Of a stretch of 64,000 bases of DNA, positions 1-62,254 are shown piece after piece. Numbering within the stretch: the first letter of the stretch is position 1; each line of letters begins with the position of its first letter. A program made the translations under genes and the position numbers. This stretch comes from Nitrospirota bacterium. GTDB taxonomy: Bacteria; Nitrospirota; Thermodesulfovibrionia; Thermodesulfovibrionales; SM23-35. A model generated the notes under the pieces. That model was not told the DNA's origin. It searched no databases and saw nothing but the letters and a program-made list of their open reading frames with translations. Location of the stretch: contig JBMOLW010000001.1 of NCBI GenBank assembly GCA_049323875.1, positions 160,073 through 224,072 on the forward strand, given 5' to 3'.

Positions 1-1253
1 CCATCGGCGTAACAAGCATCCTTATCGGGGTGATGCAGGCGCTCTTTATGATCCGGCCTGCAAAGGTCGCGTTCAAAGACTTCATGGACCCCTCCGTCTG
101 GTTCATCTTCGGGTCCATTGTCATCGGAATGGTTTTTACCAAGACAGGCCTCACAAAACGCCTTGCCTATAAAATGCTTACGATTGTCGGCGAAAAAACG
201 AGCATGATTTATCTCGGCTGTTTTGTGGTGACTGCGGCACTCACCCATATCATGGCGCATACAGCCGTTGCCGCAACGATGTATCCTCTCCTCCTCGCCA
301 TCTATTCTTTATACGGAGAAGGAGACAAGGTCACAAAATTCGGCAAAGGCCTTTTCATCGGCATGGCCTTTGTTGCCGGCGCAGGGAGCATCGTTACCCT
401 GCTCGGCGCAGCCCGTGGCGCGGTTGCAATAGGGTTCTATAACGACATCATGGGGAAGAATGTCACCTTTTTCGAGCTTACCAAATACATGTTCCTGCCC
501 GGCTGGATCATGACCTTTCTCCTCTGGGGATTTATGATGATATGGTTCAAGCCGGAAAAAAAGAATATTCCGGGACTGAGACAAAAAGCCCGGCAGCTCT
601 ATAAAGAAATGGGGAATTTCTCCGGCAAAGAAATATTTGTGGGGTTCGCTGTGCTCGGGATCATCCTGTTCCTGTCTCTTCAGTCCTTTATTCCCGCATT
701 GAAAGCTTTTGACAAGTCGGCGGTTGTTCTCGTCTCAACCGTGCTCTTTTTTACCACAAAAATCCTGACGATCAAGGACCTTGAAGAGATACCCTGGAAT
801 ATCATCCTGCTTTTCGGAGGCGCCATGAGCATAGGGTTCTGTCTCTGGGAAACCGGGGCAGCCAAGTGGCTTGCCATCAACTGGCTGGTCATGTTCCAGA
901 AATCGAACTGGTTCATCTTTGTCCTTGCGATAGCGTTCTTCGTGATGGTCATGACCAACTTCATCATGAACGTCGCGGCAATCGCTATCTCGCTTCCTGT
1001 CGCACTCGTTATCGCCCCGTACCTCGGGGTTTCGGGTGAAGTGATCTTGTTTGCGTCGCTGGTGACCGCAGGCATGCCCTTCCTCCTGCTGGTGGGCGCA
1101 GCGCCGAATGCTATCGCCTACGAGTCGAGACAGTTCACCACAGGGCAGTTCTTTGTTGCAGGCATTCCTGCAAGTATAGTCCTCATGGCTATCGTGGGAT
1201 TATGCGCAGCCATAATATGGCCGATGCTCGGCATGCCGGTAACATTGCAATAA
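1..1253 (+). CDS. SLC13/DASS family anion permease, 5'-truncated by the window edge
   Basis: Hydrophobic multi-TM ORF with motifs AHTAVAA, LLGAARGAVA and LVGAAPNAIAY. The frame is open from base 3 (IGVTSILIGVMQALF) and aligns with the interior of the paralog at 60480-61997, so the true start lies upstream of the window. Confidence 0.85.
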   Translation, partial: IGVTSILIGVMQALFMIRPAKVAFKDFMDPSVWFIFGSIVIGMVFTKTGLTKRLAYKMLTIVGEKTSMIYLGCFVVTAALTHIMAHTAVAATMYPLLLAIYSLYGEGDKVTKFGKGLFIGMAFVAGAGSIVTLLGAARGAVAIGFYNDIMGKNVTFFELTKYMFLPGWIMTFLLWGFMMIWFKPEKKNIPGLRQKARQLYKEMGNFSGKEIFVGFAVLGIILFLSLQSFIPALKAFDKSAVVLVSTVLFFTTKILTIKDLEEIPWNIILLFGGAMSIGFCLWETGAAKWLAINWLVMFQKSNWFIFVLAIAFFVMVMTNFIMNVAAIAISLPVALVIAPYLGVSGEVILFASLVTAGMPFLLLVGAAPNAIAYESRQFTTGQFFVAGIPASIVLMAIVGLCAAIIWPMLGMPVTLQ

Positions 1254-1256
1254 AAA

Positions 1257-1297
1257 CAGGCACCTGGAAGAGTGAATTTTTCCTGTTCCGGTGCCTG
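1257..1297 (+). other. Intergenic stem-loop
   Basis: CAGGCACC(T)GGAA at 1257-1269 pairs with TTCCGGTGCCTG at 1286-1297. There is no clear U-tract, so it is more likely a stability or processing hairpin than a terminator. Confidence 0.45.
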
Positions 1298-1322
1298 ATA
1301 TCTTAATTTATAAGGAGGATGT

Positions 1323-2039
1323 ATGTCATCTGAAACCATGCTGCAGAAATATTTCCCCGCAGTACATCCGGAAGCAGGCTATGTTGAAAAAACGTACAAG
1401 ATTCTGAACAGGGCAGGTTTTCATGCAGACAATACCATCGCTGCCGTTGACGTCTGCAGGGACGAGATATCCCAGCCGCTGGTCGCCCTGATCAGGGAGA
1501 AATGGGGTGAGGCATTCAATCTCTGCAGCCTTGCAGCCATGTTTTTCGCGGGCAAGACAGCCCTCAAGGCGGCAATGCACCATGCACCGGTCGTAGGGGG
1601 CAAGGAGCGGTATGTGTTTTACGCCATTCCCCATATCGCAATCGGTGCAAGGGGGCAGATGGGCTTGTGCACAAGGACCGGCAGGAAAGAGGCCTCCAAT
1701 GCATGCGGGGCGCTGAACGTTTTTCTCGGCGAACTCAGAGGAGGCAAAACAAACCTTGCCATGGACAGTGAAGACGTCGAACTGAGTCTCGTCAGAACAA
1801 GGCTGCTCAGAGAGATACCATACGGAAAAATTCCTGATCTTCTTGAACTGACCCACATTACCCTGAAGACAATAAGGGAAGACCTTGAGAACGCCCTGCA
1901 GAAGACTGTCGATGCCAGGCACAGTGACTATGCGCTCTTTACCGGCATACAAATACATGCACCCGACGGAAACTATGTGTCTCCGGCAGACAGCTATGTG
2001 GTCTTAAATTCCAAGAAACGGTCGCTCAGAATTCGATAA
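1323..2039 (+). CDS. LCIB/LCIC-family (theta-type) carbonic anhydrase-like protein
   Basis: Family motifs NTIAAVDVCRDE, WGEAFNLxSLA, GKTxxxAAMxHAP, ERYVFYAxPHIAI, SNACGAL and TGIQIH. The Cys/His/Cys zinc ligands are present. RBS AAGGAGG upstream. Confidence 0.8.
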   Translation: MSSETMLQKYFPAVHPEAGYVEKTYKILNRAGFHADNTIAAVDVCRDEISQPLVALIREKWGEAFNLCSLAAMFFAGKTALKAAMHHAPVVGGKERYVFYAIPHIAIGARGQMGLCTRTGRKEASNACGALNVFLGELRGGKTNLAMDSEDVELSLVRTRLLREIPYGKIPDLLELTHITLKTIREDLENALQKTVDARHSDYALFTGIQIHAPDGNYVSPADSYVVLNSKKRSLRIR

Positions 2040-2319
2040 CAGACTGAGATACAAAGGGTAAGCAATAGCATACAGAGATTTTGGAATGAATATGCCAGAT
2101 AAAGTATTTTTGGTCATTCTCGGGCAATCACCCTCCGAGGTATCTCCCGAAAGCTTTCGTGAGATAAAGCTGCTCAAATACTGTATCCGCAAAATTGCAT
2201 GCTCAGTTAATCAACAATACAGGTCAAGCGTTGAAGAAGGCAAACGGTTTCGGAGAGGGATAGTTTACACTCTTCACTCTCTGCTTTGAACTTTACACTT
2301 CATGCTTAAGGGAGGGATT

Positions 2320-4071
2320 ATGAAAAAACAGTTTCTCAAGCATTTCTCTCTGGGGATTCTGGCCTTATTGTTTATGCTCCCGGCAAACTGCTTCTGTGCA
2401 TCTTCCGGTGAAGTTCGGGAAATGGACAAGGTATTCGTCTCCGGAGAAATCCTGGATTCTCACCGGGAACCCGTCAAGCAGGCTGAAGTCAGGGTTCTCA
2501 TCAACGGACAGCCTCATAAAATGATCGTAGAGCATAAGGAGGTTGAAAATACAGAGACTTCCTCTCACGGCACCTATCAGCTGGAATTCGATCTGCCCGC
2601 GGGTATGATCGACACTGCCGCGATTCAGCTGAAACTGACAAAGACAAGCTACCGGACAACTTATATTGACTTTGCGAAGGAGGACTTTGCACAGAAAGGC
2701 CGGAGTTTCTATGCGGTCAGGGATACCGAGATGCCAAGGGCCATCGGCCCTGCTTTCTGGATTGCGACGGTGGTCTTCCTTATCGCGTATGCCCTGATCT
2801 CGTTTGAACTCCTCCACAGGACGATTGCAGCCATGCTCGGGGCGGCTATCATGCTCCTCATCACGTATACCTTCGGCACTCTCAACCATGAATACCATAT
2901 CATCTCTTTCGAACGGGCGATGCATGCAATCGATATGAATGTCATCTTTCTCCTCATGGGAATGATGATCATTGTCGGCGTCCTGAAGCATACGGGCGTC
3001 TTCCAGTGGTGTGCCTATATGTCTTTCAAGCTCGCGCGGGGCAATGTTATGGCCCTTGCGGTTATCTCCATGATCTTTATCTCGGTTACCTCTGCCATGC
3101 TTGACAACGTGACCACGATGCTGCTCTATACTCCGGTTCTGATAGAAATTGCGCTGGCTCTGAAACTTTCGCCTCTCGCTCTCCTTATCCCGGGCATTAT
3201 GGCATCGAATGTGGGAGGCACCGCAACATTGATCGGCGACCCCCCGAATATCATGATCGGTTCATACACCGGCCTCTCGTTCATGGCATTCGTCGCGAAC
3301 CTTACCATCACCGTAATTATATCGATGGCGGCGCTTTTCATCTATAACCGGTTCTTTTACGGAAAGACATACTCCAATGCAAAAGTCGAGGATATCGACG
3401 GGTTTATCGCCTTTTTGAAGGAAGAATACAAGATTACGGACAAGACCCTGCTGGGTTATGGCCTTTTTGTCATGGCACTGGTCGTATCTTTCTTTGTTAC
3501 CCACGGGTACTGGCATATGGAAGTGAGCATCCCCGCGCTCTTCGGAGCAGGGCTCCTCTTCACCTATGGAATCCTCAGCAAGAAGGTCAAGATGCTGGAA
3601 CTCATCGAGAAAGACATTGAGTGGACAACCCTCCTCTTCTTTATCTTCCTCTTCATGATCGTGGGCGCGGTGGAAGAGGCGGGTCTCCTTGCTGTTATTG
3701 CCGACTGGGTGCTGAACGTATCCCAGGGTGATCTGGTTACCGCGATCTGTCTGATCCTTTGGGTAGCAGCCATCATGAGCGCGTTTGTCGACAACATCCC
3801 GTTCACCGCAACCATGCTCCCCATTACCGCCTATCTCACCAAAGTAATCCCCGGAGCGGCAGAGACAAATGTACTCTGGTGGGCGCTTGCTCTCGGGGCA
3901 TGTTTCGGCGGGAACGGCACCATGATCGGAGCAAGCGCAAATGTTGTGACCGTGGGGATCGCAGAGGCTGCAGGGCACAAGATCAGCTTTTTCGGCTTCA
4001 TGAAATATGCATTCCTGTATATGATAATAAGCGTAGCCATCGCAAATGTATGGCTGCTTATCGCCTATTAA
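2320..4071 (+). CDS. ArsB/NhaD (P-protein-like) ion transporter with N-terminal signal peptide and extracytoplasmic domain
   Basis: Motifs SAMLDNVTT, SNVGGTATLIGDPPNIMIG, SAFVDNIPF and GGNGTMIGASANVV. Start moved to ATG 2320, which follows GGAGGG. Confidence 0.85.
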   Translation: MKKQFLKHFSLGILALLFMLPANCFCASSGEVREMDKVFVSGEILDSHREPVKQAEVRVLINGQPHKMIVEHKEVENTETSSHGTYQLEFDLPAGMIDTAAIQLKLTKTSYRTTYIDFAKEDFAQKGRSFYAVRDTEMPRAIGPAFWIATVVFLIAYALISFELLHRTIAAMLGAAIMLLITYTFGTLNHEYHIISFERAMHAIDMNVIFLLMGMMIIVGVLKHTGVFQWCAYMSFKLARGNVMALAVISMIFISVTSAMLDNVTTMLLYTPVLIEIALALKLSPLALLIPGIMASNVGGTATLIGDPPNIMIGSYTGLSFMAFVANLTITVIISMAALFIYNRFFYGKTYSNAKVEDIDGFIAFLKEEYKITDKTLLGYGLFVMALVVSFFVTHGYWHMEVSIPALFGAGLLFTYGILSKKVKMLELIEKDIEWTTLLFFIFLFMIVGAVEEAGLLAVIADWVLNVSQGDLVTAICLILWVAAIMSAFVDNIPFTATMLPITAYLTKVIPGAAETNVLWWALALGACFGGNGTMIGASANVVTVGIAEAAGHKISFFGFMKYAFLYMIISVAIANVWLLIAY

Positions 4072-4089
4072 CGGAAAAGGAGAGATACC

Positions 4090-5046
4090 ATGCAAATGGC
4101 ATGTCCCATACCAAAAATACTGCTTCCGATAGACGGGAGCGATGAGGCAAAGAGAGCGGTTCAGTTTGCGGGATGTCTGGGATCGTTTCTCGGGAAGAGT
4201 CTCTCGATGGTCACCCTGCACCGGGTGCTCACCGGAGGATACATAAGCAACCATCTCGCAAACGTGGACTTTCGGGCAGCGGAGATTCTGAAGAGTTCGG
4301 AGGTCTTCAAACGCATCAGGGAAGAGCATATCGCCCGGGACATCATGCCCATCCTGAATGAGGCTGAAAAGATCCTGATGGATCTCGGAATCGCTTCCCC
4401 GGTCGAGAAACTGGTCACTGAAGGGGACGCAGCGAACGAGATCATCCGGGTTGCCGGGGAGGGCGCCTTCTCCACCATCATGATGGCACGGCGGGGACTT
4501 GCTGCCGGCGGCGGCACCCCTCTGGGGAGCGTCACCAACAAAGTCATCCATGCCGCAAGCAGGCATACAGTATACATCGTCGGACACAGGCCGCTAGAGG
4601 GCAAGGCCTGTCCTATTCCAAGAATCCTGATCCCTGTTGACGGTTCCCAATACTCCATGAAGGGTGTGGAACACGCCGTTTGTCTCGCAGCGAATCTCAG
4701 GGGAGCCCTTGGCAGCATAACCCTCCTCAGGGTCATTAACGTCGCCCTGTATATGGAGAGATTGAAGAAAGGCATTGACCCGGAAGAGGAGGCCCGGAAA
4801 ATTCTTGACGAGGCCGGCAGGCTTTTCCTCAACGCCGGTATCGGGGAGGCCCTTATAGCAACAAAAATAAAGATGGGCAACCCGATTGAGGAGATCATCA
4901 AAGACGTTGAGGCCGAAGATTATAACTTCATTATTATGGGCCGCAAGGGAAGAACTTCCCTGAAAGAGCTGATCCTCGGCGGAGTGAGTGCGACCATACT
5001 GCAGCGCTGCGGCAATCCGACTATTGCCCTCGTAAGCAGCGACTGA
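4090..5046 (+). CDS. Tandem-domain universal stress protein
   Basis: Two Usp repeats: KILLPIDGS...IMMARRG...LGSVTNKV and RILIPVDGS...IIMGRKGRT...LGGVSATI. Confidence 0.9.
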   Translation: MQMACPIPKILLPIDGSDEAKRAVQFAGCLGSFLGKSLSMVTLHRVLTGGYISNHLANVDFRAAEILKSSEVFKRIREEHIARDIMPILNEAEKILMDLGIASPVEKLVTEGDAANEIIRVAGEGAFSTIMMARRGLAAGGGTPLGSVTNKVIHAASRHTVYIVGHRPLEGKACPIPRILIPVDGSQYSMKGVEHAVCLAANLRGALGSITLLRVINVALYMERLKKGIDPEEEARKILDEAGRLFLNAGIGEALIATKIKMGNPIEEIIKDVEAEDYNFIIMGRKGRTSLKELILGGVSATILQRCGNPTIALVSSD

Positions 5047-5872
5047 TCTGGCTTCTCAGGAGGGACAGGACGGCGTTATTCCATCCTGCCGGCCCTGTTC
5101 CTTCTGTTTGTATGAGATTGGAGAGACGAATACCGCCGGCATATTCCCCTGAAGGTTTCCGGATAAGAACCGGGCAATCCACCTGTTCCAGCATCGGGAT
5201 ATCATTCGGACTGTCGCCAAGTCCAATGGTAACTATTGAACCAAACGCCTTCCGATACAGGTCGTTGAGTATCGATACTGCCCTGCCCTTATCGCTGTCC
5301 CCGAGGATATGGTAGAAGGCACCCCGGGTGTACCGGAACCCTTTTGCCAGAATTGCGGCAAGGAGGCGCGGGATATCAGGCTCTGCCCCTTCAAACACAA
5401 AAGGCTCATCAAATGAGCGCTTCTTTGCCATTTCAGCCTCAGGGAGACTGAGTCCGGTCAGTCCTGCAACCTCTCCTGCGCTCATATCTCCAAAACCCCT
5501 GATGGGAAAACCTTCAGTGCGGAGTGCCGAGACTGCTTTCCTTATTTCACTGTATACCGCGCCAAGGACTATTACCTCGTAGTCATCTTCACCCTGAACG
5601 GCGTGGCCGGGAACTGCAAGGGGGAAATCAAAATATCCTTTCGGGACAAAAATGCCCCCTCCGTTCTCAGCGATGAAAGGATGTCTGTTCCCGGTCTGTT
5701 CCCGGTAGAACTCTATTTCAGTCCTCGTCTTGCTGGAAGAGAAAATAAGCGGGATATTCAGGTTACGGATGGCGTGAAGAGCAGGCAATGCGGGATCAAA
5801 GCTATAGGTCGTTGCGTCCAGGAGCGTCCCGTCAAGGTCAGAGAAAATTACCCGTTGTTTCATGCTCTTCAT
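5021..5872 (-). CDS. mpgP: Mannosyl/glucosyl-3-phosphoglycerate phosphatase (HAD IIB, MpgP/YedP family)
   Basis: Motifs FSDLDGTLL, SSKTRTEI, PFIAENGG and LGDSPNDIPML. Located near a gpgS-like gene. Confidence 0.85.
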   Translation of the reverse strand: MKSMKQRVIFSDLDGTLLDATTYSFDPALPALHAIRNLNIPLIFSSSKTRTEIEFYREQTGNRHPFIAENGGGIFVPKGYFDFPLAVPGHAVQGEDDYEVIVLGAVYSEIRKAVSALRTEGFPIRGFGDMSAGEVAGLTGLSLPEAEMAKKRSFDEPFVFEGAEPDIPRLLAAILAKGFRYTRGAFYHILGDSDKGRAVSILNDLYRKAFGSIVTIGLGDSPNDIPMLEQVDCPVLIRKPSGEYAGGIRLSNLIQTEGTGPAGWNNAVLSLLRSQISRCLRGQ

Positions 5873-7179
5873 TCTATCACAGTGATCTGCAGATCCATGA
5901 CATTTGTCCCTGTCGGCCCTGTAACCAAGAGGTCGCCGGTCTCCCTGAGAAATGCATAGGAATTATTGTCTTCCAGATACCTGAGGACATCGAGTCCGAG
6001 CGCTTCGGCCCTCTTCAGGGTAGAACCGTCCACGATCGCCCCGGCTGCGTCTGTGGGTCCGTCGGTTCCGTCTGTGCCCGCAGAGAGGAGGGTGATCCCG
6101 GGGATGTCCCTGATCTCCCGGGCAAAAGCAAGCGCGAGTTCCATGTTCCTCCCCCCGGTGCCCTTTCCTCTTACCGTAACGGTTGTCTCACCGCCTGAGA
6201 GCAGGCAGAGCGGCTGTTGAGAGGGGTATTCTGCCCGGATTTCCCGCGCCTTCTCGGCAATCCATCTGCCTGCCTCCCGTGCTTCCCCTGTTATTGCAGA
6301 AGAAAGAAGGACTGTATGCAAACCTGCTCTCTCAGCGTAATTTTTCGCTGCTTCAAGAGCGGTCCGGTTCCCCCCGATAATCAGATTCTCCCCGTTTTGA
6401 AATATTCTGTCACCTTCCTTGGGCGTTTCAGGGAGAAGTCCCTGCCTTCCCAGTTCAAAGACAGAGGCAACCCTGTCCGGCACGCTATCCTGCACACCGT
6501 ATTTCTCAATCACTCCTGCTGCATCATGATAGGTTGTCGGATCAGGAGCCGTAGGCCCTGACGCTATCACGTCGAGCCTGTCGCCTATGACATCAGAGAG
6601 GATCAGGGAAAGAAAACGGGACGGATAGGCAATTGCCGCAAGCCTGCCTCCCTTCACCCGGGAGAGGTGTTTTCTCACAGCGTTCATCTCATAGATATCG
6701 GCTCCGGATCTGAGCAGGAGGTTCGTGGTCATCTGTTTGTCCTGCAGGGTTATCCCTTCACAGGGAGAGACGAGCAGCGCCGATCCTCCTCCGGACAGGA
6801 GGCATACCGCAAGGGTATGTTCGTCGGCATCTCCGAGAATCCTGACGATCTCTCCTGTTGCCCTCACACCGTTTTCATCAGGCAGAGGATGTCCCCCTTC
6901 AAAGACCTTCCCTTGCCTCAGTGCATAGCCGTCGGAATGACCGTATTTTGTAATAACCAGGCTTGTGGCTACAAGATCACCGCATATTTCCTCAACCGCT
7001 TTTGCCATAGGGCATGCCGCTTTTCCGAATGCGAGAGAGATGAGTCTCGTACACCGGCCGGACCTATAAGAACCGATAATGGCATCCCTGTATCGCACTA
7101 CTGAAACATAGGGATCGACTGCGGTCAATGCTGCGCGATAAAGCTCAAGCAGTTGCTGCCTGGTTTTATTGGATTCCAT
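5869..7179 (-). CDS. Glycerate kinase type 2 (TtuD/MOFRL family)
   Basis: Motifs GKAACPMA, GGHPLPD, LLSGGGSAL, VRKHLSRVKGG, GGETTV, GGRNMELAL and TGPTGTNVMD. Start set at the ATG following GGAGG (MESNK). Confidence 0.9.
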   Translation of the reverse strand: MESNKTRQQLLELYRAALTAVDPYVSVVRYRDAIIGSYRSGRCTRLISLAFGKAACPMAKAVEEICGDLVATSLVITKYGHSDGYALRQGKVFEGGHPLPDENGVRATGEIVRILGDADEHTLAVCLLSGGGSALLVSPCEGITLQDKQMTTNLLLRSGADIYEMNAVRKHLSRVKGGRLAAIAYPSRFLSLILSDVIGDRLDVIASGPTAPDPTTYHDAAGVIEKYGVQDSVPDRVASVFELGRQGLLPETPKEGDRIFQNGENLIIGGNRTALEAAKNYAERAGLHTVLLSSAITGEAREAGRWIAEKAREIRAEYPSQQPLCLLSGGETTVTVRGKGTGGRNMELALAFAREIRDIPGITLLSAGTDGTDGPTDAAGAIVDGSTLKRAEALGLDVLRYLEDNNSYAFLRETGDLLVTGPTGTNVMDLQITVIE

Positions 7180-7324
7180 CGCACTATCCTCCTTCCGGCC
7201 CGGATATACGCCCCGGGGAAAACCCATGCAGGCGTGGCAGAACAGGCAAAACCCTCTGCTTTCCCTTTTTGCGGATATGCCGTATAATCAACCAGGGATG
7301 ACCAGCATAGTATACAAAATTCTC

Positions 7325-7388
7325 TTGACAAAAGTAACTACTCAATTATTATAATTATGACTACAATTTTTACCTGAAATGGTTACAT
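7325..7388 (+). promoter_or_regulatory. Sigma70-type promoter of the TA operon with candidate operator repeats
   Basis: TTGACA at 7325-7330, then TATTAT at 7347-7352 (16 nt spacer) or TATAAT at 7350-7355 (19 nt spacer). Related octamers GTAACTAC (7334), ATGACTAC (7357) and inverted GGTTACAT (7381). Confidence 0.65.
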
Positions 7389-7392
7389 CATC

Positions 7393-7653
7393 ATGATTAC
7401 GGTCGGGATTAAGGAATTAAAGGCAAAACTCAGCAGCTATATAGACAAGGTATGCCGCGGAGACCGCGTGGTCATCACCGAACATGGCAGGGAAGTGGCG
7501 GTGATCACCCCGATTTCGAAGGAAAGGAAAGTTATCAACGCGCTTATCGATTCAGGAAGGGCGCAGTGGTCGGGGGGGAAGCCGCACGGGCTGGAAGGCA
7601 TAAAGATAGAGGGCAAACTCCTCTCAGAAACCATTCTGGAGGAACGCGTATGA
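7393..7653 (+). CDS. Phd/YefM (prevent-host-death) family antitoxin
   Basis: N-terminus MITVGIKELKAKLSSYIDKVCRGDRVVITEHGREVAVITP is typical of the family. ATGA overlap with the downstream PIN gene. Confidence 0.9.
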   Translation: MITVGIKELKAKLSSYIDKVCRGDRVVITEHGREVAVITPISKERKVINALIDSGRAQWSGGKPHGLEGIKIEGKLLSETILEERV

Positions 7654-8075
7654 TCCTGTATCTCGGCTCCAGCAGTCTCGTGAAGCTCTATGTCGAAGAG
7701 CCGTATACCCATCTTGTGAGGATGTGGATCCGTGAAGCCGAGATCGTCGCAACATGCCGCATCACCTATACAGAGGTCATTTCTGCGCTTGAAATGCGCC
7801 TGAAACAGACCGACCTGTCCAGAAAGGATTACGATCTCGTCGTGAAACGGTTTTCGAGAGACTGGAGTGATTATGCAACGGTCGATTTCGACGACCGCGA
7901 AGCAGCCCTGTTCCTGAAAAAATATACCCTGAAACGGTTTGATGCTCTCCATCTCTCTGCGGCAAAACTCATACAGAAGAGAAGAAACGGTTTTTTCTTT
8001 GCATTCTCATCGGCTGATGAGAGGCTCTGCAGTGCTGCAGAGTCAGAAGGACTGAACGTACTCCGTTTCCAGTAA
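7650..8075 (+). CDS. vapC: VapC/PIN-domain toxin with the first catalytic Asp replaced by Gly
   Basis: MILYLGSSSLVKLYVEE, where the family consensus is YLDTSALVKLY. TYTEV, RFDALHL and SADERL are retained. True start 7650 is coupled to the antitoxin stop. Confidence 0.85.
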   Translation: MILYLGSSSLVKLYVEEPYTHLVRMWIREAEIVATCRITYTEVISALEMRLKQTDLSRKDYDLVVKRFSRDWSDYATVDFDDREAALFLKKYTLKRFDALHLSAAKLIQKRRNGFFFAFSSADERLCSAAESEGLNVLRFQ

Positions 8076-8104
8076 AAAAAAGGATTCGCTTCAAGGAGGC
8101 ATGT

Positions 8105-9313
8105 ATGTCGGACTTTTACCAGGCAGGTGTTGTTGCAACCCTTCACCGTCTCGGGAGTGTGGAGATTGAAAAGCTCGAGGCTGAATTGACGTGGTTTGCT
8201 CAGGAAAGGCCGATTGCCCTTGTACTGCCTTCCCTGTATAGTGAACTCGAAGGGGATGCATTAAAGAACATCGTGAAAGAGCTGCAGGCAGTCAGATACA
8301 TCAAGGAGATCATCGTCACGCTCGGTCCTGCTTCCCGGGAAGAATTCATGCTCACCAAAGATTTCTTTTCCGTGCTTCCCCAGCAGGTCAGGATAATCTG
8401 GAATGCCGGCCCCCGGATTGGTGCGATTTACCAGGATATCGAAGCCGCTGACCTCCCGATCGGTGAACCCGGAAAAGGCAGGTCTGCATGGATGGCTTAC
8501 GGATATATTCTGTCAAAGCAGTATTTCCATGCCATCGCACTCCATGACTGCGATATTCTGACCTATAGCAGGGAACTCCTTGCACGCCTCTGTTATCCTG
8601 TAGTCAATCCGAATCTCGGCTACGACTTCTGCAAGGGGTTCTACAGCAGAGTAACTGACCGGCTTCATGGGCGGATGACGAGGCTCCTGGTTACTCCACT
8701 TATCCGCTCCCTGCAGAAGATACTCGGCCACCTGCCTATACTCATCTTCTTCGACAGCTTCAGATATCCGCTTGCAGGTGAGTTTTCCATGGATATTGAC
8801 CTCGCACGGATAAACCGTATCCCCGGGGACTGGGGACTGGAAGTGGGCGTGCTGGCAGAAGTTTACCGGAACACTTCGTCGCGGAGAGTCTGCCAGGTCG
8901 ATATAGCGGATAATTATGAGCATAAACACCAGGAACTCTCCCCCGAGGACACGACCAAGGGGTTGAATAAAATGTGCGTGGATATCAGCAAGTCTGTTTT
9001 CAGAACCCTTGCATCCGAGGGGATAGTCTTCTCTGATGGTTTCTTCAAAACACTTTTTGCCACGTATGTAAGGACTGCCCAGGATATGCTGAAAAGATAC
9101 GAGGACGACGCCGCCATAAACGGCCTCGTATTCGACAGGCATGAGGAAAGTCTTGCCGTAGAGACCTTCACAAACGGGATAAAAAGAGCGGCGGAAATCA
9201 TTACCGAAGACCCTCTCGGGGTTCCGCTGATTGCAAGCTGGGACCGGGTAACTTCTGCAATCCCTGATATCCTTGATGCTATCAAGAAGGCAGTCGAAGA
9301 AGATAATGCGTAA
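8105..9313 (+). CDS. gpgS: Glucosyl-3-phosphoglycerate synthase-like glycosyltransferase
   Basis: Motifs MSDFYQxGVVATLH, RPIALVLPSLYSEL, GKGRSAW, ALHDCDI, FRYPLAGEF, WGLEVGVLAEV and YEHKHQELS. Neighbours are the phosphatase and glycerate kinase. Confidence 0.8.
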   Translation: MSDFYQAGVVATLHRLGSVEIEKLEAELTWFAQERPIALVLPSLYSELEGDALKNIVKELQAVRYIKEIIVTLGPASREEFMLTKDFFSVLPQQVRIIWNAGPRIGAIYQDIEAADLPIGEPGKGRSAWMAYGYILSKQYFHAIALHDCDILTYSRELLARLCYPVVNPNLGYDFCKGFYSRVTDRLHGRMTRLLVTPLIRSLQKILGHLPILIFFDSFRYPLAGEFSMDIDLARINRIPGDWGLEVGVLAEVYRNTSSRRVCQVDIADNYEHKHQELSPEDTTKGLNKMCVDISKSVFRTLASEGIVFSDGFFKTLFATYVRTAQDMLKRYEDDAAINGLVFDRHEESLAVETFTNGIKRAAEIITEDPLGVPLIASWDRVTSAIPDILDAIKKAVEEDNA

Positions 9314-53839: not shown

Positions 53840-54736
53840 ATGCGCAGAATAGGTTATTTTTTAATCACGAACCTCGCGATACTACTTGTGCTGGGGATGG
53901 TGCTGAGAATCCTTGGCATTGAAGCTTACATAACTCCCTATGGTTTGAATTATCAGTCGCTGCTCATTTTTGCAGCCGTGTTCGGTATGGGAGGCGCATT
54001 CATCAGCCTCGCGCTCTCCAAATGGACCGCTAAGCGACTCACGAGAGCCCAGACAATAACTGCCCCTGCAAATGAGACAGAACGCTGGCTCGTACGGACA
54101 GTGAGCGAGCTCGCTTCCCGAGCCGGCATCGGCATGCCCGAAGTTGCCGTATATCCCTCTGATGACATGAATGCCTTTGCAACAGGGATGAAGCGGAACA
54201 ACGCCCTTGTCGCTGTCTCAACCGGCATGCTGAAACGCATGGACAGGGAGAAAATCCGGGCGGTGCTCGCTCATGAAGTAGCACATGTCAAGAATGGCGA
54301 TATGATAACCCTTGCGTTAATACAGGGGGTAGTGAACACCTTCGTCATTTTCTTCGCACGCATTATCGGCTACACGGTAGACAGGGTGATACTCAGGAAT
54401 GAGAGAGGGCACGGGATAGGATTCTGGGTAACCACAATCATCGCAGAGATATTCCTTTCCATCCTTGCATCAATAATCGTCTTCTGGTTTTCGAGGAAGA
54501 GGGAATTTCGTGCTGACAGCGGCGCTGCAGAGTTTGTCGGGAAAAAACCCATGATCAGCGCGCTGGAGTCTTTGAAAGCGTCGATTAAACAGCCTCATCT
54601 GCCCGACCAGATGGCGGCATTCGGCATCTCAGGAGGAAAAAAACACGGGCTGAAAGCGCTTTTTGCGACTCATCCGGACCTGGATGACCGGATCAATAGC
54701 CTTATGGGATCCCAGTATCCTGATTACAAGCCCTGA
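53840..54736 (+). CDS. htpX: Zinc metalloprotease HtpX
   Basis: Motifs NAFATG, HEVAHVKNGDM, FSRKREFRAD and THPDL. Confidence 0.93.
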   Translation: MRRIGYFLITNLAILLVLGMVLRILGIEAYITPYGLNYQSLLIFAAVFGMGGAFISLALSKWTAKRLTRAQTITAPANETERWLVRTVSELASRAGIGMPEVAVYPSDDMNAFATGMKRNNALVAVSTGMLKRMDREKIRAVLAHEVAHVKNGDMITLALIQGVVNTFVIFFARIIGYTVDRVILRNERGHGIGFWVTTIIAEIFLSILASIIVFWFSRKREFRADSGAAEFVGKKPMISALESLKASIKQPHLPDQMAAFGISGGKKHGLKALFATHPDLDDRINSLMGSQYPDYKP

Positions 54737-54757
54737 GCATAGTGCGACGGACAAGAG

Positions 54758-56743
54758 ATGGAATTTGAATTTTTAAAATCTCTTGAAGTAATATTTATTG
54801 CGTCCGCTGCAGTAATCCTGCTGCTCTACAAATTGAAGATTCCTTCCCTGATCGGGTTCATCGTCGCCGGAATAATCATAGGCCCGCACGGTATAGGACT
54901 GATACAAGACGTCCACTTTATTCAGATCCTTGCAGAAATCGGCGTCATACTCCTGCTCTTCACCATCGGCATCGAGTTTTCAATGACAAAACTCATCAGG
55001 ATCAGAAGAGCCGTATTAGGAGGAGGCGGGGCGCAGGTCCTGCTGACCATAGTCATATCAGCTGCCCTTACCTATATCGCCATAGAAAATGTCAACCAGT
55101 CGCTTTTTTTCGGATTTCTGTATGCCCTGAGCAGCACTGCAATAGTGCTGAAGCTGCTCACTGAGAGGGGGGAAATAGACTCTCCTCACGGCCACACCAT
55201 GGTAGGCATCCTCATATTCCAGGACCTCTGCATCGTACCGCTCATGCTTCTTGTTCCGGCCCTCTCGGGTGACAGGATCGACTTCGTCGATGTTGGACTA
55301 AAGATGGGCAAGGCGGCTGTTATCATTCTCGTGGTATTGTTCAGTTCCAGATGGATGGTTCCTGCCCTGCTCCACCAGGTAGTCCGTACAAAAAGCAGGG
55401 AGCTCTTTCTGACCACCATTATCCTCCTCTGCCTCGGCATAGCCCTCCTGACCTCGAAGTTCGGTCTCTCCCTTGCCCTCGGGGCTTTTCTGGCAGGCCT
55501 CATCATATCCGAGTCAGAGTATGCACATCAGGCCATCTCGGATATATTGCCCTTCAAGGACAGTTTCATGGGCCTTTTCTTCGTCTCCATTGGAATGCTC
55601 ATGAATACCGGGTTTGCCATCGATAACGGGATCAGAATAACCCAGGTTGTTCTCCTTATAGTCCTCCTGAAAATCATCACGGGGACACTCTCAGCGCTGT
55701 TGATAGGGAATGCCCTGAGGCCGGCCGTTTTTACCGGTCTGGGGCTTGCGCAGATCGGGGAGTTTTCCTTTGTACTTGCAGTTGCCGGCAAGGCTTCGGG
55801 ACTGATTTCGGAAGAATTCTATCAGATCTTCCTTGGATCTTCTGTCGTAACAATGATCATGACCCCTTTCATGCTGAATGCCGCGCACTCAGCTTCTGAA
55901 TGGATTACGTCGAGGCCTCTCCTGAAAAGACTGGAAAGAAAACGGAGGGTTGCCGAGGGGGAGGGAACTCCGCGCAAAAAACACGACCATGTTATTATCG
56001 TAGGATTCGGTCTGAACGGAAGAAATCTGGCCAAAGTTTTGAAAGAGGCTGAAATTCCCTATGTTGTGCTCGAAATGAACAGCGATACGGTCCGGGAAAT
56101 GCGCAGGAAAGGCGAACCGATCTATTATGGTGACGGGACGAGCCAGGAGATACTCCACAAACTAAACATAGAAAAGGCGAGACTCGTGGTCATCGCGATT
56201 TCAGACCCCGTCTCCACCAGGAGAATTGTATCGATAGCAAAACATGCTAACCGTCAGATATATATTATTGTAAGAACACGCTACTTCATCGAAGTCGACG
56301 ACCTCAAATCACTTGGGGCTGATGAGGTGATACCGGAAGAGTTCGAAACCTCGATCGAGATCTTTTCGCGGGTATTGCACCGCTACAGCTTCCCCAGAAA
56401 TGCGATACTCGATATGGTTGATAAAATCCGGAGCAACAGTTACACCGCCCTGCGGAGTGTTGAAGTGCCGAGACGGCATCTTTTTGAAAAATATGAATGG
56501 CTGCCTGAGATCGAAATAGACGGGTTCCGCATCACCGAGGGGTCTCATCTCGATGAAAAGACAATCAAGGAACTCCAGATAAGGAAAAAAACCGGGGTTA
56601 CCATCATTGCCGTGAGAAGGGGCAAGACTGTCCATACCAATCCTCAGCCTGATTTCAGGCTGAAAGCAGGCGATTTCCTCCTCTATACAGGCGACAGGGA
56701 AAATATGCAGAACGCCCTCAGTTACTTTTCCGGCGAGATATAA
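54758..56743 (+). CDS. CPA2 cation:proton antiporter with TrkA-N and TrkA-C (RCK) domains
   Basis: Motifs LSSTAIVLKLL, IFQDL, AQIGEFSF, VGFGLNG and IRKKTGVTIIAVRRG...NP. Confidence 0.9.
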   Translation: MEFEFLKSLEVIFIASAAVILLLYKLKIPSLIGFIVAGIIIGPHGIGLIQDVHFIQILAEIGVILLLFTIGIEFSMTKLIRIRRAVLGGGGAQVLLTIVISAALTYIAIENVNQSLFFGFLYALSSTAIVLKLLTERGEIDSPHGHTMVGILIFQDLCIVPLMLLVPALSGDRIDFVDVGLKMGKAAVIILVVLFSSRWMVPALLHQVVRTKSRELFLTTIILLCLGIALLTSKFGLSLALGAFLAGLIISESEYAHQAISDILPFKDSFMGLFFVSIGMLMNTGFAIDNGIRITQVVLLIVLLKIITGTLSALLIGNALRPAVFTGLGLAQIGEFSFVLAVAGKASGLISEEFYQIFLGSSVVTMIMTPFMLNAAHSASEWITSRPLLKRLERKRRVAEGEGTPRKKHDHVIIVGFGLNGRNLAKVLKEAEIPYVVLEMNSDTVREMRRKGEPIYYGDGTSQEILHKLNIEKARLVVIAISDPVSTRRIVSIAKHANRQIYIIVRTRYFIEVDDLKSLGADEVIPEEFETSIEIFSRVLHRYSFPRNAILDMVDKIRSNSYTALRSVEVPRRHLFEKYEWLPEIEIDGFRITEGSHLDEKTIKELQIRKKTGVTIIAVRRGKTVHTNPQPDFRLKAGDFLLYTGDRENMQNALSYFSGEI

Positions 56744-56751
56744 CGCTCCCT

Positions 56752-58569
56752 ATGAACTCCCTGGCAATATTTGTTCTTTCGCTTCTCTGTATTTTCTGCA
56801 CTCACAGTTCCCTCCATGCTTACCCTCCCGATTACCTCATAGCTCTTGACGGCATCCATAAATTTTCTCCTGACGACAACCCTCATTACGCATTGCCCTC
56901 GTATGACGATTCCGGCTGGGAACCGGTCGCCGTTCCCGGAAACTGGCAATCCCAGGGAATCAGTCCTCCGGATGGCATAGGATGGTACAGAATTCATTGC
57001 ACTGTTCCCGAGAGCTTCAGAAACATCCAGCCTGCTGTCTTCCTCGGAAGGATCGGCGATGCGGATGAGGTTTTCTTCAATGGCTTCATGATCGGGGGGG
57101 AAGGATCTATCGGCAAACAGTTCATTGAAGCATCAAAAATTGACCGGCTCTACATGATCCCCCGGGAACAGATCAATTACGGAGGAGAGAATCTCATTGC
57201 CGTTCGGGTTCTGAATACCTATCTCAACGGCGGGATCTTTGACCGGGGAATCCATATTGGCGAATACAAAGACCTTCTGATTGTGAAACTGCAAAAACAC
57301 CAGAATACTCTTATAGGGGAGTTCTGTTTCTTCACTTTCTTCTCCCTGTTCTTCCTTGCCTGTCTCTTTTTTTACATCAAGGGACTGAGGGACAGGGAAT
57401 ATTTTTACTTCTGGCTATTTATAACCCTCTACGGCATACTCTTCTTTCTCGGAAGCGTCACATTCTATGACACCGGAATGAAAACGCGGAGTGTACAGCA
57501 GACGATCGCCATAATTTCCGCACTCCTCCCGGCAAGCCTGCTCCTGCTCCTTGTCCACTTCTATAAGGAAAAAATCTCGTTTTTTGTCCGTACAATTGCA
57601 GCCGCATTCTTCTGTATAGCGACGCTCAGCCTCTTTTTCACTTCCTATACCGCGAGGATATCTCTCCATACCTTCTGGAAACTGCTCTTTATCCTTACTG
57701 CTGCGTTTCTTGTCTTTATTGCGATCAAAGCGTTCTTCAGAAAATTTTATGAATCCGGTACCATTCTTTTCGGTATTACCGGTCTGATAGTCGGATTTAT
57801 CGTTGAGTCACTGGGGGGGCTTGACCTCCTGCAGGTTACCGGGTTTTTCCTCTGGGACTATGCCGTAGCATTTTTCATGATCTGTGTAATGTATGCGTTG
57901 ACTTCACGGTATACCCGCATCAAGGAACTCCAATCCGCTTCCATGAAAATATTCAACGCGCATGAGAAGGAGAGAAAGAGACTTGCACGGGAACTTCATG
58001 ACGGAATCGGGACATCCCTGCTCGCAACCAAGATGAAACTCAAGATGATCGAGGCCCGCGTAAAGGAGAATCTGCCGATAGACGAACAGGCATTCCCTGA
58101 ATTGATTGCGGAAATGAGGCATTCCATCGATGAATTGAGGGCTGTGGCGAAAGATCTCCGGCCGTCGTTCCTCGAGAATACCGAGCTTGTAGACGCAATG
58201 AAATGGCACGCCCGGAAGGTACAGGCCCGCACTGGCATAGACGTCAGGATCAGTGCGGGCACCCTGAACAAAATCGGTCCGGAACTCAAGGAGAATCTCT
58301 ACCGCATATTTCAGGAAGCACTGAATAATGCCATAAAACACTCGGGTGCAACATCTGTCGATATCCTGCTGAGCAGGGACACTGAATATCTTACTCTCGA
58401 AATTCACGATAATGGACGGGGTTTTGTAATTGCCGGCCGTGAAAAGGAAGAGCAGGGTCTGGGGCTCTACACAATACGAGAGCGGGTCGAGTTGCTCGGA
58501 GGTATTATCAGGATCAAGAGTTCTGATAAAATAGGCACGAATATCTATATCGAGGTGCCGCTCAAATGA
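56752..58569 (+). CDS. Sensor histidine kinase (HisKA_3/NarX type) with extracellular galactose-binding-like domain and about 7 TM helices
   Basis: N-domain YDDSGWEPVAVPGNW...GIGWYR...LGRIGDADEVFFNG. Kinase motifs ERKRLARELHDGIG, QEALNNAIKHS and DNGRGF. Confidence 0.88.
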   Translation: MNSLAIFVLSLLCIFCTHSSLHAYPPDYLIALDGIHKFSPDDNPHYALPSYDDSGWEPVAVPGNWQSQGISPPDGIGWYRIHCTVPESFRNIQPAVFLGRIGDADEVFFNGFMIGGEGSIGKQFIEASKIDRLYMIPREQINYGGENLIAVRVLNTYLNGGIFDRGIHIGEYKDLLIVKLQKHQNTLIGEFCFFTFFSLFFLACLFFYIKGLRDREYFYFWLFITLYGILFFLGSVTFYDTGMKTRSVQQTIAIISALLPASLLLLLVHFYKEKISFFVRTIAAAFFCIATLSLFFTSYTARISLHTFWKLLFILTAAFLVFIAIKAFFRKFYESGTILFGITGLIVGFIVESLGGLDLLQVTGFFLWDYAVAFFMICVMYALTSRYTRIKELQSASMKIFNAHEKERKRLARELHDGIGTSLLATKMKLKMIEARVKENLPIDEQAFPELIAEMRHSIDELRAVAKDLRPSFLENTELVDAMKWHARKVQARTGIDVRISAGTLNKIGPELKENLYRIFQEALNNAIKHSGATSVDILLSRDTEYLTLEIHDNGRGFVIAGREKEEQGLGLYTIRERVELLGGIIRIKSSDKIGTNIYIEVPLK

Positions 58570-59195
58570 CCACCCTTATCATCGCCGACGACCATATCAT
58601 ATTCAGGCAGGGGCTCCGGAACCTTTTGCAATCCTCTCCTGACCTATCCGTAATCGGAGAATCCGGTGAAGGCAGGGAGACGTTTGACCTTATTGTCAGA
58701 GAGAATCCGGATATTGCCATACTCGACATATCAATGCCCGGACTTGACGGCTTCGAAATTCTCCAGAAAATCCAGAGCATGGGACTCAGGACAAAGGTTA
58801 TTTTCCTCACCATGCATAACGAAACCCTTACGGCTAAAAGAGCCATTCAACTCAATGCCTCAGGGTATGTTCTGAAGGATAACGCGTTCGAAGACCTGCT
58901 CTATGCGGTGAAAACCGTTTCTGCAGGCGGAACTTTTCTCAGTCCTTCTGTCTCCGAGAGAATTCTGAAAACCCCCCTGGAAAAAGGAGAAGAGGCTCAG
59001 ATGCTCACACTCCGCGAACGGGAGATACTAAAGCTTATCGCATCCGGACTGACCAACAAACAGATAGCCGGGCAATTGTTTATCAGCGTCAAAACCGTGG
59101 AAACCCACCGGACGAATATTATGCAGAAACTCGATGTCCATACGACCGCAGATCTTGTGCGGCATGCGATAAAAACAGGCATTCTGGAGAAGTAA
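58566..59195 (+). CDS. NarL/LuxR-family response regulator
   Basis: Motifs ADDH, LDISMP, GYVLK and LTLREREILKLIASGLTNKQIA...SVKTVETHR. Confidence 0.93.
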   Translation: MTTLIIADDHIIFRQGLRNLLQSSPDLSVIGESGEGRETFDLIVRENPDIAILDISMPGLDGFEILQKIQSMGLRTKVIFLTMHNETLTAKRAIQLNASGYVLKDNAFEDLLYAVKTVSAGGTFLSPSVSERILKTPLEKGEEAQMLTLREREILKLIASGLTNKQIAGQLFISVKTVETHRTNIMQKLDVHTTADLVRHAIKTGILEK

Positions 59196-59838: not shown

Positions 59839-59945
59839 TGAAATAGGCAAGAGACTTAAATAAAATATATTATATTGTTGTAATCATAATTCTTTATATA
59901 GTTAGTACATTATATTATTATGTTTAGTTCCATAACGAGGAGGGT

Positions 59946-60470
59946 ATGATGGCAGACGGAAAACGGGTGAAAGAAATCATGGTTGGAATCTTTGAGTATC
60001 CTCATGTCCCCTACTGGTTTTCGATCAACCAGGCTGTAAGGATTGTGAAGGTATCGTTCATCAGCTCCAGGAAGTTCCCTGAGCCCATGGCAATCCTGGT
60101 GTTTGATGAAAAATACAACCTCACGGGGACCCTTACCCTGAAGGATATCCTCAGGGGGCTGGAGCCGAAATTCATGAGCTCCACCACCAAGGCACAGGTC
60201 CCTGAAGAGGACGAGAGCAGTCTGGCCCTGATCTGGGACCTGCTCTTTACAAAAGACATCAAAGACCTTGCCGAGAAGCCGGTCAGCTCTATCATGGCGC
60301 CTGCAAAATATTTCGTCGATCCGGACGATCCTATCACGAAAGCCGCTTACCTCATGGTGCACCACGACCTTGTCCTCCTGCCCGTGCTGGAGAACAGGAA
60401 AAAGTTTGTCGGGCTTGTTCGGATGATCGAAATCTTTGATGAAATTTCCAACGCTCTAATGAGTGAATAG
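59946..60470 (+). CDS. Stand-alone CBS-domain protein
   Basis: VKEIM...GTLTLKDIL...PVSSIM...LPVLE...VGLVRMIEIF. Confidence 0.85.
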   Translation: MMADGKRVKEIMVGIFEYPHVPYWFSINQAVRIVKVSFISSRKFPEPMAILVFDEKYNLTGTLTLKDILRGLEPKFMSSTTKAQVPEEDESSLALIWDLLFTKDIKDLAEKPVSSIMAPAKYFVDPDDPITKAAYLMVHHDLVLLPVLENRKKFVGLVRMIEIFDEISNALMSE

Positions 60471-60479
60471 GAGGGTGAT

Positions 60480-62130: not shown

Positions 62131-62254
62131 GATACGTCAAAAGTAGCCGGGGAGCATACCCGAGACAGAACATGAATCTTTCTCTCTGAATAAACGCTCA
62201 ATAGCTGAAGAACCGGACATTCGCAGTACAACTAACTTCATTATGGAGGCTGGC

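Follow-up and report, generated by a model that had tools for sequence, protein, structure and literature searches.

A carbonic anhydrase (CA)-like protein of the LCIB/theta type is encoded between two membrane permeases in the genome of a Nitrospirota bacterium, within a cassette with the order GntR - CBS - DASS - LCIB - ArsB/NhaD-like - Usp, versions of which recur in other genomes. The cassette was found in a window of 64,000 nucleotides (nt) of contig JBMOLW010000001.1 (G000:C1:160073-224072), which was analysed together with L002, a stretch that adds 12 kb upstream of the window. Profile search, alignment and predicted fold firmly identify the 238-amino acid (aa) product of the gene at 1323-2039 (+ strand), which lacks a signal peptide, as a member of the LCIB/theta (beta-like) CA family with an intact metal site. 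We tentatively propose, with somewhat less than even confidence, that the cassette may constitute a joint inorganic carbon, sodium and pH transport unit with a cytoplasmic LCIB carbonic anhydrase as its soluble component.

The LCIB protein matched the LCIB_C_CA profile (PF18599) with an E value of 1.4e-54 and 185.2 bits against a cut-off of 25, over profile positions 5-222 of 223, and it is the only copy in the host genome; the family comprises 1197 representatives at E up to 0.001 in a 50%-clustered library. A previous sequence-only reading of this DNA had identified the protein as LCIB-type and had reported CRDE, PHI and ACGAL motifs in it. The profile search substantiated that identity, and the three motifs were located at residues 45-48, 103-105 and 127-131 (V-C45-R46-D47-E48, P103-H104-I105 and A127-C128-G129-A130-L131). 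In alignments, C45, H104 and C128 fall on those Cys, His and Cys residues of LCIC, LCIB and PtLCIB4 that are known, and described in PMC8825250 and PMC8075897, as the zinc ligands of the family. The residues C45, R46, D47, H104 and C128 were invariant in 40 bacterial homologues of approximately 240 aa and in 32 cassette orthologues. H87, also invariant among the 32 cassette orthologues, corresponds in the alignment to the His in 'aghip' of PtLCIB4, which we take to be H88 of PtLCIB4 and His162 of CrLCIB. The AlphaFold2 model built from the 40 homologues reached a pLDDT of 97.5 and a pTM of 0.93. A Foldseek search with this model gave LCIB-family chains in each of the top eight rows (TM 0.74-0.84), and canonical beta-CAs came next, with E values of 4.5e-6 and weaker. 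The structure prediction that had been suggested along with the sequence-only reading thus matches the crystal structures of LCIB, LCIC and PtLCIB4.

The closest sequences in the PDB were those of Chlamydomonas LCIC (E 6.7e-43) and LCIB (E 2.1e-40), the diatom proteins being more distant. With the Chlamydomonas reinhardtii proteins (PDB 5k5w and 5b5x; TM 0.74-0.82) the host protein shares the Pfam family, the Cys-His-Cys site and the C-R-D-E motif, including the Arg after the first Cys. However, the algal proteins are located in the chloroplast, where they serve the RuBisCO- and pyrenoid-based CO2-concentrating mechanism, and they carry both transit peptides and extensions at the C terminus and assemble into an LCIB/LCIC complex, whereas the host protein is a bare 238-aa domain encoded among transporter genes of an anaerobic sulfate reducer without RuBisCO. 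The Phaeodactylum tricornutum proteins PtLCIB4 and PtLCIB3 (PDB 5b5y and 6kfs) have the same fold (TM 0.83-0.84) and the same zinc ligands, but they are only 20-26% identical to the host protein and carry Ser instead of Arg after the first Cys.

One important question is whether a protein of this type is active as a free enzyme. The host protein shares the Arg after the first Cys with CrLCIB/LCIC and with the PtLCIB4 S47R mutant deposited as 5b60; the residue at this position is Ser in wild-type PtLCIB4 and in 6kfs, and Cys in 9w05. PtLCIB3/4 have been described as constitutively active (PMC9614477). Recombinant and native Chlamydomonas LCIB/LCIC are reported to have no CA activity in vitro (PMC8825250, citing Jin 2016), and the same source mentions the suggestion that they play a Cup-like 'pumping' role. 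The CRDE motif alone is therefore no argument for CA activity. The host protein, a firm member of the family, is of the Chlamydomonas type, and free CA activity should not be assumed for it, since the Arg after the Cys is the state of proteins found inactive in vitro.

The sequence-only reading had also described a co-oriented run SLC13 - CA-like - ArsB/NhaD - Usp at the start of the window, and this was borne out by the listing of open reading frames (ORFs) and by Pfam, four co-oriented ORFs being present on the + strand at positions 1-5046. The DASS/SLC13-family permease gene (copy 1, 3-1253, +; Pfam Na_sulph_symp/CitMHS) has its 5' end beyond the window edge. Its complete form, of 505 aa, lies at L002:11736-13253 and starts 265 nt upstream of the window. 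It is separated from the LCIB gene by a spacer of 69 nt with short inverted repeats (1255-1297, +, by direct reading of the sequence), and a ribosome-binding site, AGGAGG, is found at 1313-1318, 5 nt ahead of the ATG of LCIB. The gene for the ArsB/NhaD-superfamily permease (Pfam CitMHS) occupies 2320-4071 (+). Its ORF (589 aa) opens at 2302, and the start is more probably the ATG at 2320, which is preceded by a Shine-Dalgarno-like GGGAGGG. The last gene of the run (4090-5046, +) encodes a tandem universal stress protein (Usp) of 318 aa, matched by PF00582 in two stretches.

Upstream of the window the run continues with a gene for a CBS-pair protein (186 aa) and one for a GntR/UTRA regulator, next to which a phosphoenolpyruvate (PEP) synthase-like gene lies in divergent orientation. 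No terminator-like site was called between the DASS, LCIB and ArsB-like genes, and promoter-like sites, at 11 of 12 matches each, face both directions in the spacer between the GntR and PEP-synthase-like genes. A search of the window and L002 with Rfam at gathering thresholds gave 0 matches, so no known riboswitch was found in the spacers. The PEP-synthase-like protein itself (867 aa, L002:7776-10379, - strand), whose gene is divergent from GntR in 35 of the clustered loci described below, matches PEP synthase only over the ATP-grasp and phospho-histidine domains; scans of its N-terminal 130 aa and of its C-terminal part of about 280 aa (288 aa scanned) gave no usable Pfam match (E up to 5).

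Recurrence of the cassette was analysed in two sets of genomes. From a species-representative collection the best 80 of 105 related loci were taken; these are the loci nearest to the query, so the rates obtained do not describe the whole family. The neighbourhoods of these 80 loci and of L002 (81 loci) were compared by tblastn and by all-against-all clustering of 1148 crude ORFs. Of the 65 loci in which the upstream sequence reached 1600 nt or more, 49 have the DASS gene immediately ahead of LCIB; a CBS cluster had 72 members in the 81 loci, and the Usp gene followed the ArsB-like gene in 10. The closest public loci carry Thermodesulfovibrionales/Nitrospirota labels, and parts of the cassette were found in records labelled Thermodesulfobacterium (two cultured strains), Desulfobacterales, Acidobacteriota, Actinomycetota, Chloroflexota and Rokubacteria. 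The two cultured strains, T. thermophilum DSM 1276 and T. hveragerdense DSM 12571, have the genes DASS-LCIB-ArsB-like-Usp (L103 and L107). By clustering, neither DASS nor an ArsB-like or Mrp transporter was detected in 22 of the 80 loci, a number that includes short contigs as well as L061, where GntR and CBS abut LCIB, and L073, where DASS was found by tblastn. Rearranged linked loci were also observed: LCIB precedes GntR-CBS in L068 and L073, and it follows an Mrp cluster in L084. The recurring linkage of LCIB homologues with DASS/SLC13 and ArsB-like genes, which the sequence-only reading had anticipated, was thus found in other genomes and metagenome-assembled genomes (MAGs) of several labelled phyla.

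In the related genomes, up to 20 kb around 16 LCIB matches were searched with the window's eight neighbouring proteins, and 14 loci matched. DASS adjoins LCIB in 13 of these and is represented by a 44-aa remnant in the other one; most also have GntR and CBS ahead, and 12 have the PEP-synthase-like gene in divergent orientation. The two loci with a 404-aa LCIB form were not matched by any of the eight queries. Among 61 relatives, all 17 genomes with a cassette-type LCIB also have a DASS orthologue (E up to 1e-60). DASS without LCIB was found in four genomes (G006, G014, G036 and G054), in two of them at contig ends, and neither gene was found in the remaining 40.

Some further forms of these genes were noticed. 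LCIB genes that appear decayed are present in two relatives, one with two in-frame TGA codons (G003:C6:84369-84923) and one split over three frames (G011:C9:109309-109940). A distant frame of 393-404 aa, which matches just the central positions of the LCIB profile (71-212, E about 1e-14), occurs at G039:C20:30062-30475, at G051:C1:2401305-2401718 and in G184, with the cassette neighbours absent. In a bacterial MAG (L115:1-2261) two adjacent ORFs each carry an LCIB domain in tandem. In several loci (L039, L046-L050, L065 and L074) each permease of the IT superfamily often has its own small CBS-pair gene directly upstream, giving the pairs CBS-DASS and CBS-ArsB-like, which suggests that the CBS proteins are detachable regulatory subunits of IT-superfamily carriers.

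The slot downstream of LCIB was examined in the 71 loci with at least 2500 nt of downstream sequence, an ArsB-like gene being counted when it lay within 4 kb. It was occupied by an ArsB-like gene in 38 loci, by a cluster of Mrp type in 5, by both in none and by neither in 28. The co-oriented Mrp-type clusters follow LCIB in L040, L042, L070, L076 and L086, with ten genes each in L070 and L042. In L070, nine of the ten ORFs were matched by Pfam (MnhE, MrpF, MnhG, MbhD, MbhE, MnhB, NuoK-like Oxidored_q2 and Proton_antipo_M), and the Mrp clusters beside LCIB contain three subunits of the NuoL/M/N type (Proton_antipo_M). The order in L084, from a record labelled Actinomycetota, is CBS-DASS-Mrp(10 genes)-LCIB, and in L109 (label Nitrospinota) a stretch of 10 kb contains LCIB as well as an ArsB-like gene and an Mrp cluster. 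MnhE had no match in the host genome, which is 99.6% complete, and the ArsB/NhaD-like permease occupies the slot there. Since the ArsB-like permease and Mrp were never found together downstream of LCIB, these small numbers from related genomes suggest that both do the same job, namely cation/proton antiport.

The ArsB-like permease matches CitMHS (PF03600, 249 bits, E 6.6e-74) and ArsB (PF02040, 41.7 bits, E 1.3e-10), both above their cut-offs, and all NCBIfam equivalogs were far below theirs (MamN 157.8 against 500, ArsB 84.9 against 457). It has an additional N-terminal region of about 150 aa with a signal-like sequence, and only automatic names ('SLC13 family permease') were retrieved for it from a protein atlas. 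In Thermodesulfobacterium thermophilum the ArsB-like gene (L103:10718-12444) matches in two pieces and appears decayed. The sequence-only reading had placed LCIB between two anion transporters. Two permease families do flank the gene, but the role of the second as an anion carrier is doubtful, given that either an ArsB-like permease or Mrp, never both, fills this slot.

A second module of the same kind, lacking LCIB, is present at the other end of the window. It is headed by a 7TMR-DISM histidine kinase and a LuxR-type response regulator (56752-59195, +), whose clusters recur among the 81 loci, that of the kinase (c6) in 27 and that of the regulator (c0) in 36. It continues with a second CBS-pair gene (59946-60470, +), a second DASS gene (60480-61997, +), whose product is 81% identical to that of copy 1 and which has no LCIB gene after it, and a second ArsB/NhaD-like permease gene (62243-64000, +) with its 3' end beyond the window edge. 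A spacer of 245 nt lies at the place that LCIB would occupy. Because this paralogous module exists, LCIB is an optional addition to a transporter pair that is able to work without a CA. The two CBS copies, that of the second module and the one directly upstream of the window, are 100% identical in protein and DNA over about 530 nt (L002:11200-11730 and window 59944-60474), whereas identity between the neighbouring DASS genes is only 64-94% in blocks of 100 nt; the CBS tract looks like a recent gene conversion or an artefact of MAG assembly. Directly upstream of the two-component system, at 53840-56743, lie genes for an M48 peptidase and for a Kef-type Na_H_Exchanger with TrkA-N/C domains.

The DASS permease matched PF00939 with 146.5 bits (cut-off 27; E 1.7e-42) and TIGR00785 with 193.8 bits, slightly below the cut-off of 198.6. 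Its nearest solved relative is VcINDY (E 1e-27), in which two Ser-Asn-Thr (SNT) motifs at the hairpin tips bind Na+ and carboxylate. Both canonical motifs are missing from the host protein: the first is replaced by A174-H175-T176 and the second by M411-N412-V413. The GSPPNA stretch of VcINDY corresponds to GAARGA, and R227, in the first hairpin, is invariant. As read from the alignment, the altered SNT motifs and the invariant hairpin Arg would fit a substrate other than a carboxylate, and they prove nothing. Across phyla the DASS proteins are 59-82% identical. A complex prediction for DASS and LCIB, each supplied as an alignment, scored 0.00 against a mark of 0.32 with no controls folded, and this result was not used for or against binding.

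Phylogenetic analysis of LCIB gave two different pictures. In a FastTree phylogeny of 153 rows the transporter-linked LCIBs fell into two far-apart clades. In the IQ-TREE analysis with a site-mixture model, made with a subset of 61 rows chosen after the FastTree result, all 22 linked rows were placed on one 29-row side, the other members of which, five rows without known context and two without linkage, nest inside the linked group. Owing only to these nested rows, the 22 linked ones were rejected as strictly monophyletic (p-AU 0.037). Two independent recruitments of LCIB to transporters, as suggested by FastTree, were dropped from consideration on the basis of the IQ-TREE grouping. To judge from these trees, one origin of the linkage followed by descent and transfer is most likely, and its preservation through the rearrangements in L068, L073 and L084 is an argument for selection.

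The host is a groundwater sulfate reducer whose genome contains dsrA and, as a marker of the Wood-Ljungdahl pathway, acetyl-CoA synthase; searches of this genome for RuBisCO and for beta-CA gave no match. The only other recognisable CA in the host is of the alpha class (E 1.1e-46) and is encoded on another contig (G000:C47:64611-65249, - strand). Among sequencing runs, no RNA run containing this DNA was listed, and one DNA run (share 0.76) probably represents the source sample. Among the 61 relatives dsrA was above the cut-off in 49. Beta-CA was present in 8 of 17 LCIB-positive genomes and in 26 of 44 others, which gives no useful signal of complementarity.

Family membership, metal site, fold and conserved linkage come from the analysis, and from these we infer substrates, direction and coupling as follows. 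The DASS permease would couple the entry of a cation to that of a small inorganic anion, for which bicarbonate or carbonate is the likeliest candidate. LCIB would equilibrate HCO3- and H+ with CO2 in the cytoplasm, and the adjacent antiporter (ArsB/NhaD-like, or Mrp in other genomes) would expel the co-transported Na+ and return the proton consumed by dehydration, the net result being the conversion of external HCO3- and H+ into internal CO2. Running in reverse at alkaline pH, the cycle would make the cytoplasm more acidic. Regulatory subunits may be provided by the small CBS-pair proteins and by the tandem Usp, and expression would be set by GntR and, in the paralogous module, by the two-component system. 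Since the carbon enzymes of a host with the Wood-Ljungdahl pathway use CO2, such a host would profit from a cytoplasmic CA that acts after a bicarbonate carrier.

The nearest functional precedent is cyanobacterial. The NdhR regulon of Synechocystis comprises both the SbtA/B Na+/HCO3- symporter and the Mrp-like mnh operon, a proposed Na+ extruder (PMC4390856). The logic of SbtA/SbtB and mnh under NdhR/CcmR is the same, an inorganic carbon carrier being tied to an Mrp-type Na+ extruder, but the carrier is SbtA instead of DASS, no cytoplasmic CA takes part (the CA is in the carboxysome), the regulators are others and the genes do not form one cassette. In bacteria, SulP-family anion transporters can be paired or fused with beta-CA. 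In these systems, as in the vectorial CO2 hydration by DAB (PMC13144422) and Cup, a CA-type protein likewise has a membrane ion transporter as its genetic or physical partner, and DabB and NdhD3/F3 belong to the Proton_antipo_M family that was found three times in the Mrp clusters beside LCIB. They differ in having a canonical beta-CA, DabA or CupA in place of LCIB and another transporter family in place of DASS and ArsB/NhaD.

Several observations weigh against a carbon, sodium and pH transport unit. The DASS permease belongs to no known family of bicarbonate carriers, and its binding motifs differ from those of VcINDY. GntR/UTRA regulators usually sense organic ligands, and such a regulator next to a divergent PEP-synthase-like gene (35 loci) fits an organic substrate better. 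The paralogous module and four related genomes have DASS without LCIB, and LCIB itself is patchily distributed: 19 of 61 related genomes have it, among them two with the distant 404-aa form, as do 18 of 201 genomes of a phylum sample. At seven distant homologue loci, from records labelled Anaerolineae, Planctomycetota, Polyangiaceae and others, ten co-oriented neighbours are mostly housekeeping genes or have no Pfam match: six are ordinary genes (DNA ligase, SAICAR synthetase and sugar-nucleotide enzymes, among others), two have no match, one is a Proton_antipo_M subunit (L084) and one a further LCIB domain (L115). The linked LCIBs are essentially one subfamily, and therefore the linked loci are descendants or transfers of one arrangement and not independent origins. 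Finally, R46 is the state of the Chlamydomonas LCIB/LCIC proteins reported to be inactive in vitro (PMC8825250).

Some of these observations would be better accommodated if DASS imported sulfate or thiosulfate, or a di- or tricarboxylate, with LCIB supplying counter-ion and proton balance as HCO3- and H+ from metabolic CO2, an explanation that we consider rather unlikely. DASS permeases are candidate sulfate carriers of sulfate reducers, and a 'highly conserved' DASS group, Ci, spans Firmicutes, Proteobacteria and Thermodesulfobacteria (PMC5840216). The host and nearly all its relatives have dsrA, the identity of DASS across phyla is high (59-82%) and the paralogous module dispenses with LCIB; in line with an organic substrate, the regulator (GntR) and the PEP-synthase-like neighbour both hint at such a ligand. 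However, the cassette is found in only 21 of 61 dsrA-bearing relatives and is therefore not the general sulfate carrier, nor did the clustered neighbourhoods, as far as their unnamed clusters were annotated, contain a sat, apr or dsr gene. A carboxylate is disfavoured by the alteration of both carboxylate-binding SNT motifs. It is very improbable, in our view, that the cassette reflects only inherited synteny without functional coupling, with LCIB as a stand-alone housekeeping CA in an island of ion-stress genes. The restriction of linked LCIBs to one subfamily, the mostly unrelated neighbours at the distant loci and the compatible-solute genes and Kef-like exchanger nearby would agree with it, and the lack of a beta-CA in the host genome leaves a general CA role open. 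The linkage, however, survives rearrangement (L068, L073 and L084) and crosses labelled phyla, every relative with a cassette-type LCIB has DASS, and LCIB and beta-CA are not complementary in their occurrence, which indicates that LCIB is not simply a replacement housekeeping CA.

The identity of the LCIB activity itself admits another explanation, which appears improbable: LCIB might not be a free CA but a partner-dependent, energy-coupled CO2 hydratase docked on an ion transporter, as CupA/B on NDH-1 and DabA on DabB, or it might act on a substrate like carbonyl sulfide (COS). The Arg after the Cys shared with CrLCIB/LCIC, for which inactivity has been reported and a Cup-like role suggested (PMC8825250), points in this direction, as does the position of LCIB against Mrp clusters with subunits of the NuoL/M/N type (the DabB and NdhD3/F3 family) in L040, L042, L070, L076, L084 and L086; with regard to COS, hydrolases of the beta class exist (PMC13098186). 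On the other side, the protein retains its three metal ligands and the Asp beside them, and Mrp lies directly downstream in only 5 of 71 loci, single-subunit permeases being found in most. A wider form of this idea, which the sequences would allow and which we regard as quite improbable, is that the Arg-type (C-R-D-E) LCIBs of bacteria as well as algae are not free CAs. As partner-dependent CO2 hydratases they would gain both activity and direction only by docking on a membrane protein that translocates ions, in bacteria Mrp, DASS or an NhaD-like permease. If this were true, it would explain the inactivity of Chlamydomonas LCIB/LCIC in vitro, and the cassette would be an ancestral, genetically tractable form of the 'CO2-recapture pump' postulated for these proteins.

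Next to the cassette, at 5021-9313 of the window, lies a set of compatible-solute genes, which consists of an MPGP-family phosphatase gene (- strand), a glycerate 2-kinase gene (- strand) and a glucosyl-3-phosphoglycerate-synthase-like gene (+ strand). Between the latter two are a gene for a Phd-type antitoxin (7393-7653) and a 141-aa ORF without a family match.

No description of a bacterial LCIB cassette was found in the papers that could be searched. A survey from 2026 regards theta-CA as largely restricted to diatoms and protozoa (PMC13098186), and a minireview from 2024 counts theta-CA genes in prokaryote genomes, without characterising them (PMC10880623). A known enzyme family is found here in an undescribed, conserved bacterial transport setting. 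LCIB is a key and mechanistically unresolved part of the algal CO2-concentrating mechanism, and its one-directional action is presented as an open question in PMC8825250. The closest bacterial relatives of the Chlamydomonas type occur in a compact, operon-like unit with defined membrane partners, also in two cultured Thermodesulfobacterium strains, which therefore offers a simple system to learn what an LCIB-type protein needs in order to work. The cassette also suggests functions for an uncharacterised DASS clade and for an ArsB/NhaD-like clade, and it points to an unrecognised kit for the handling of carbon, pH and sodium in subsurface sulfate reducers, anaerobes in which the Wood-Ljungdahl pathway serves to fix or release CO2.

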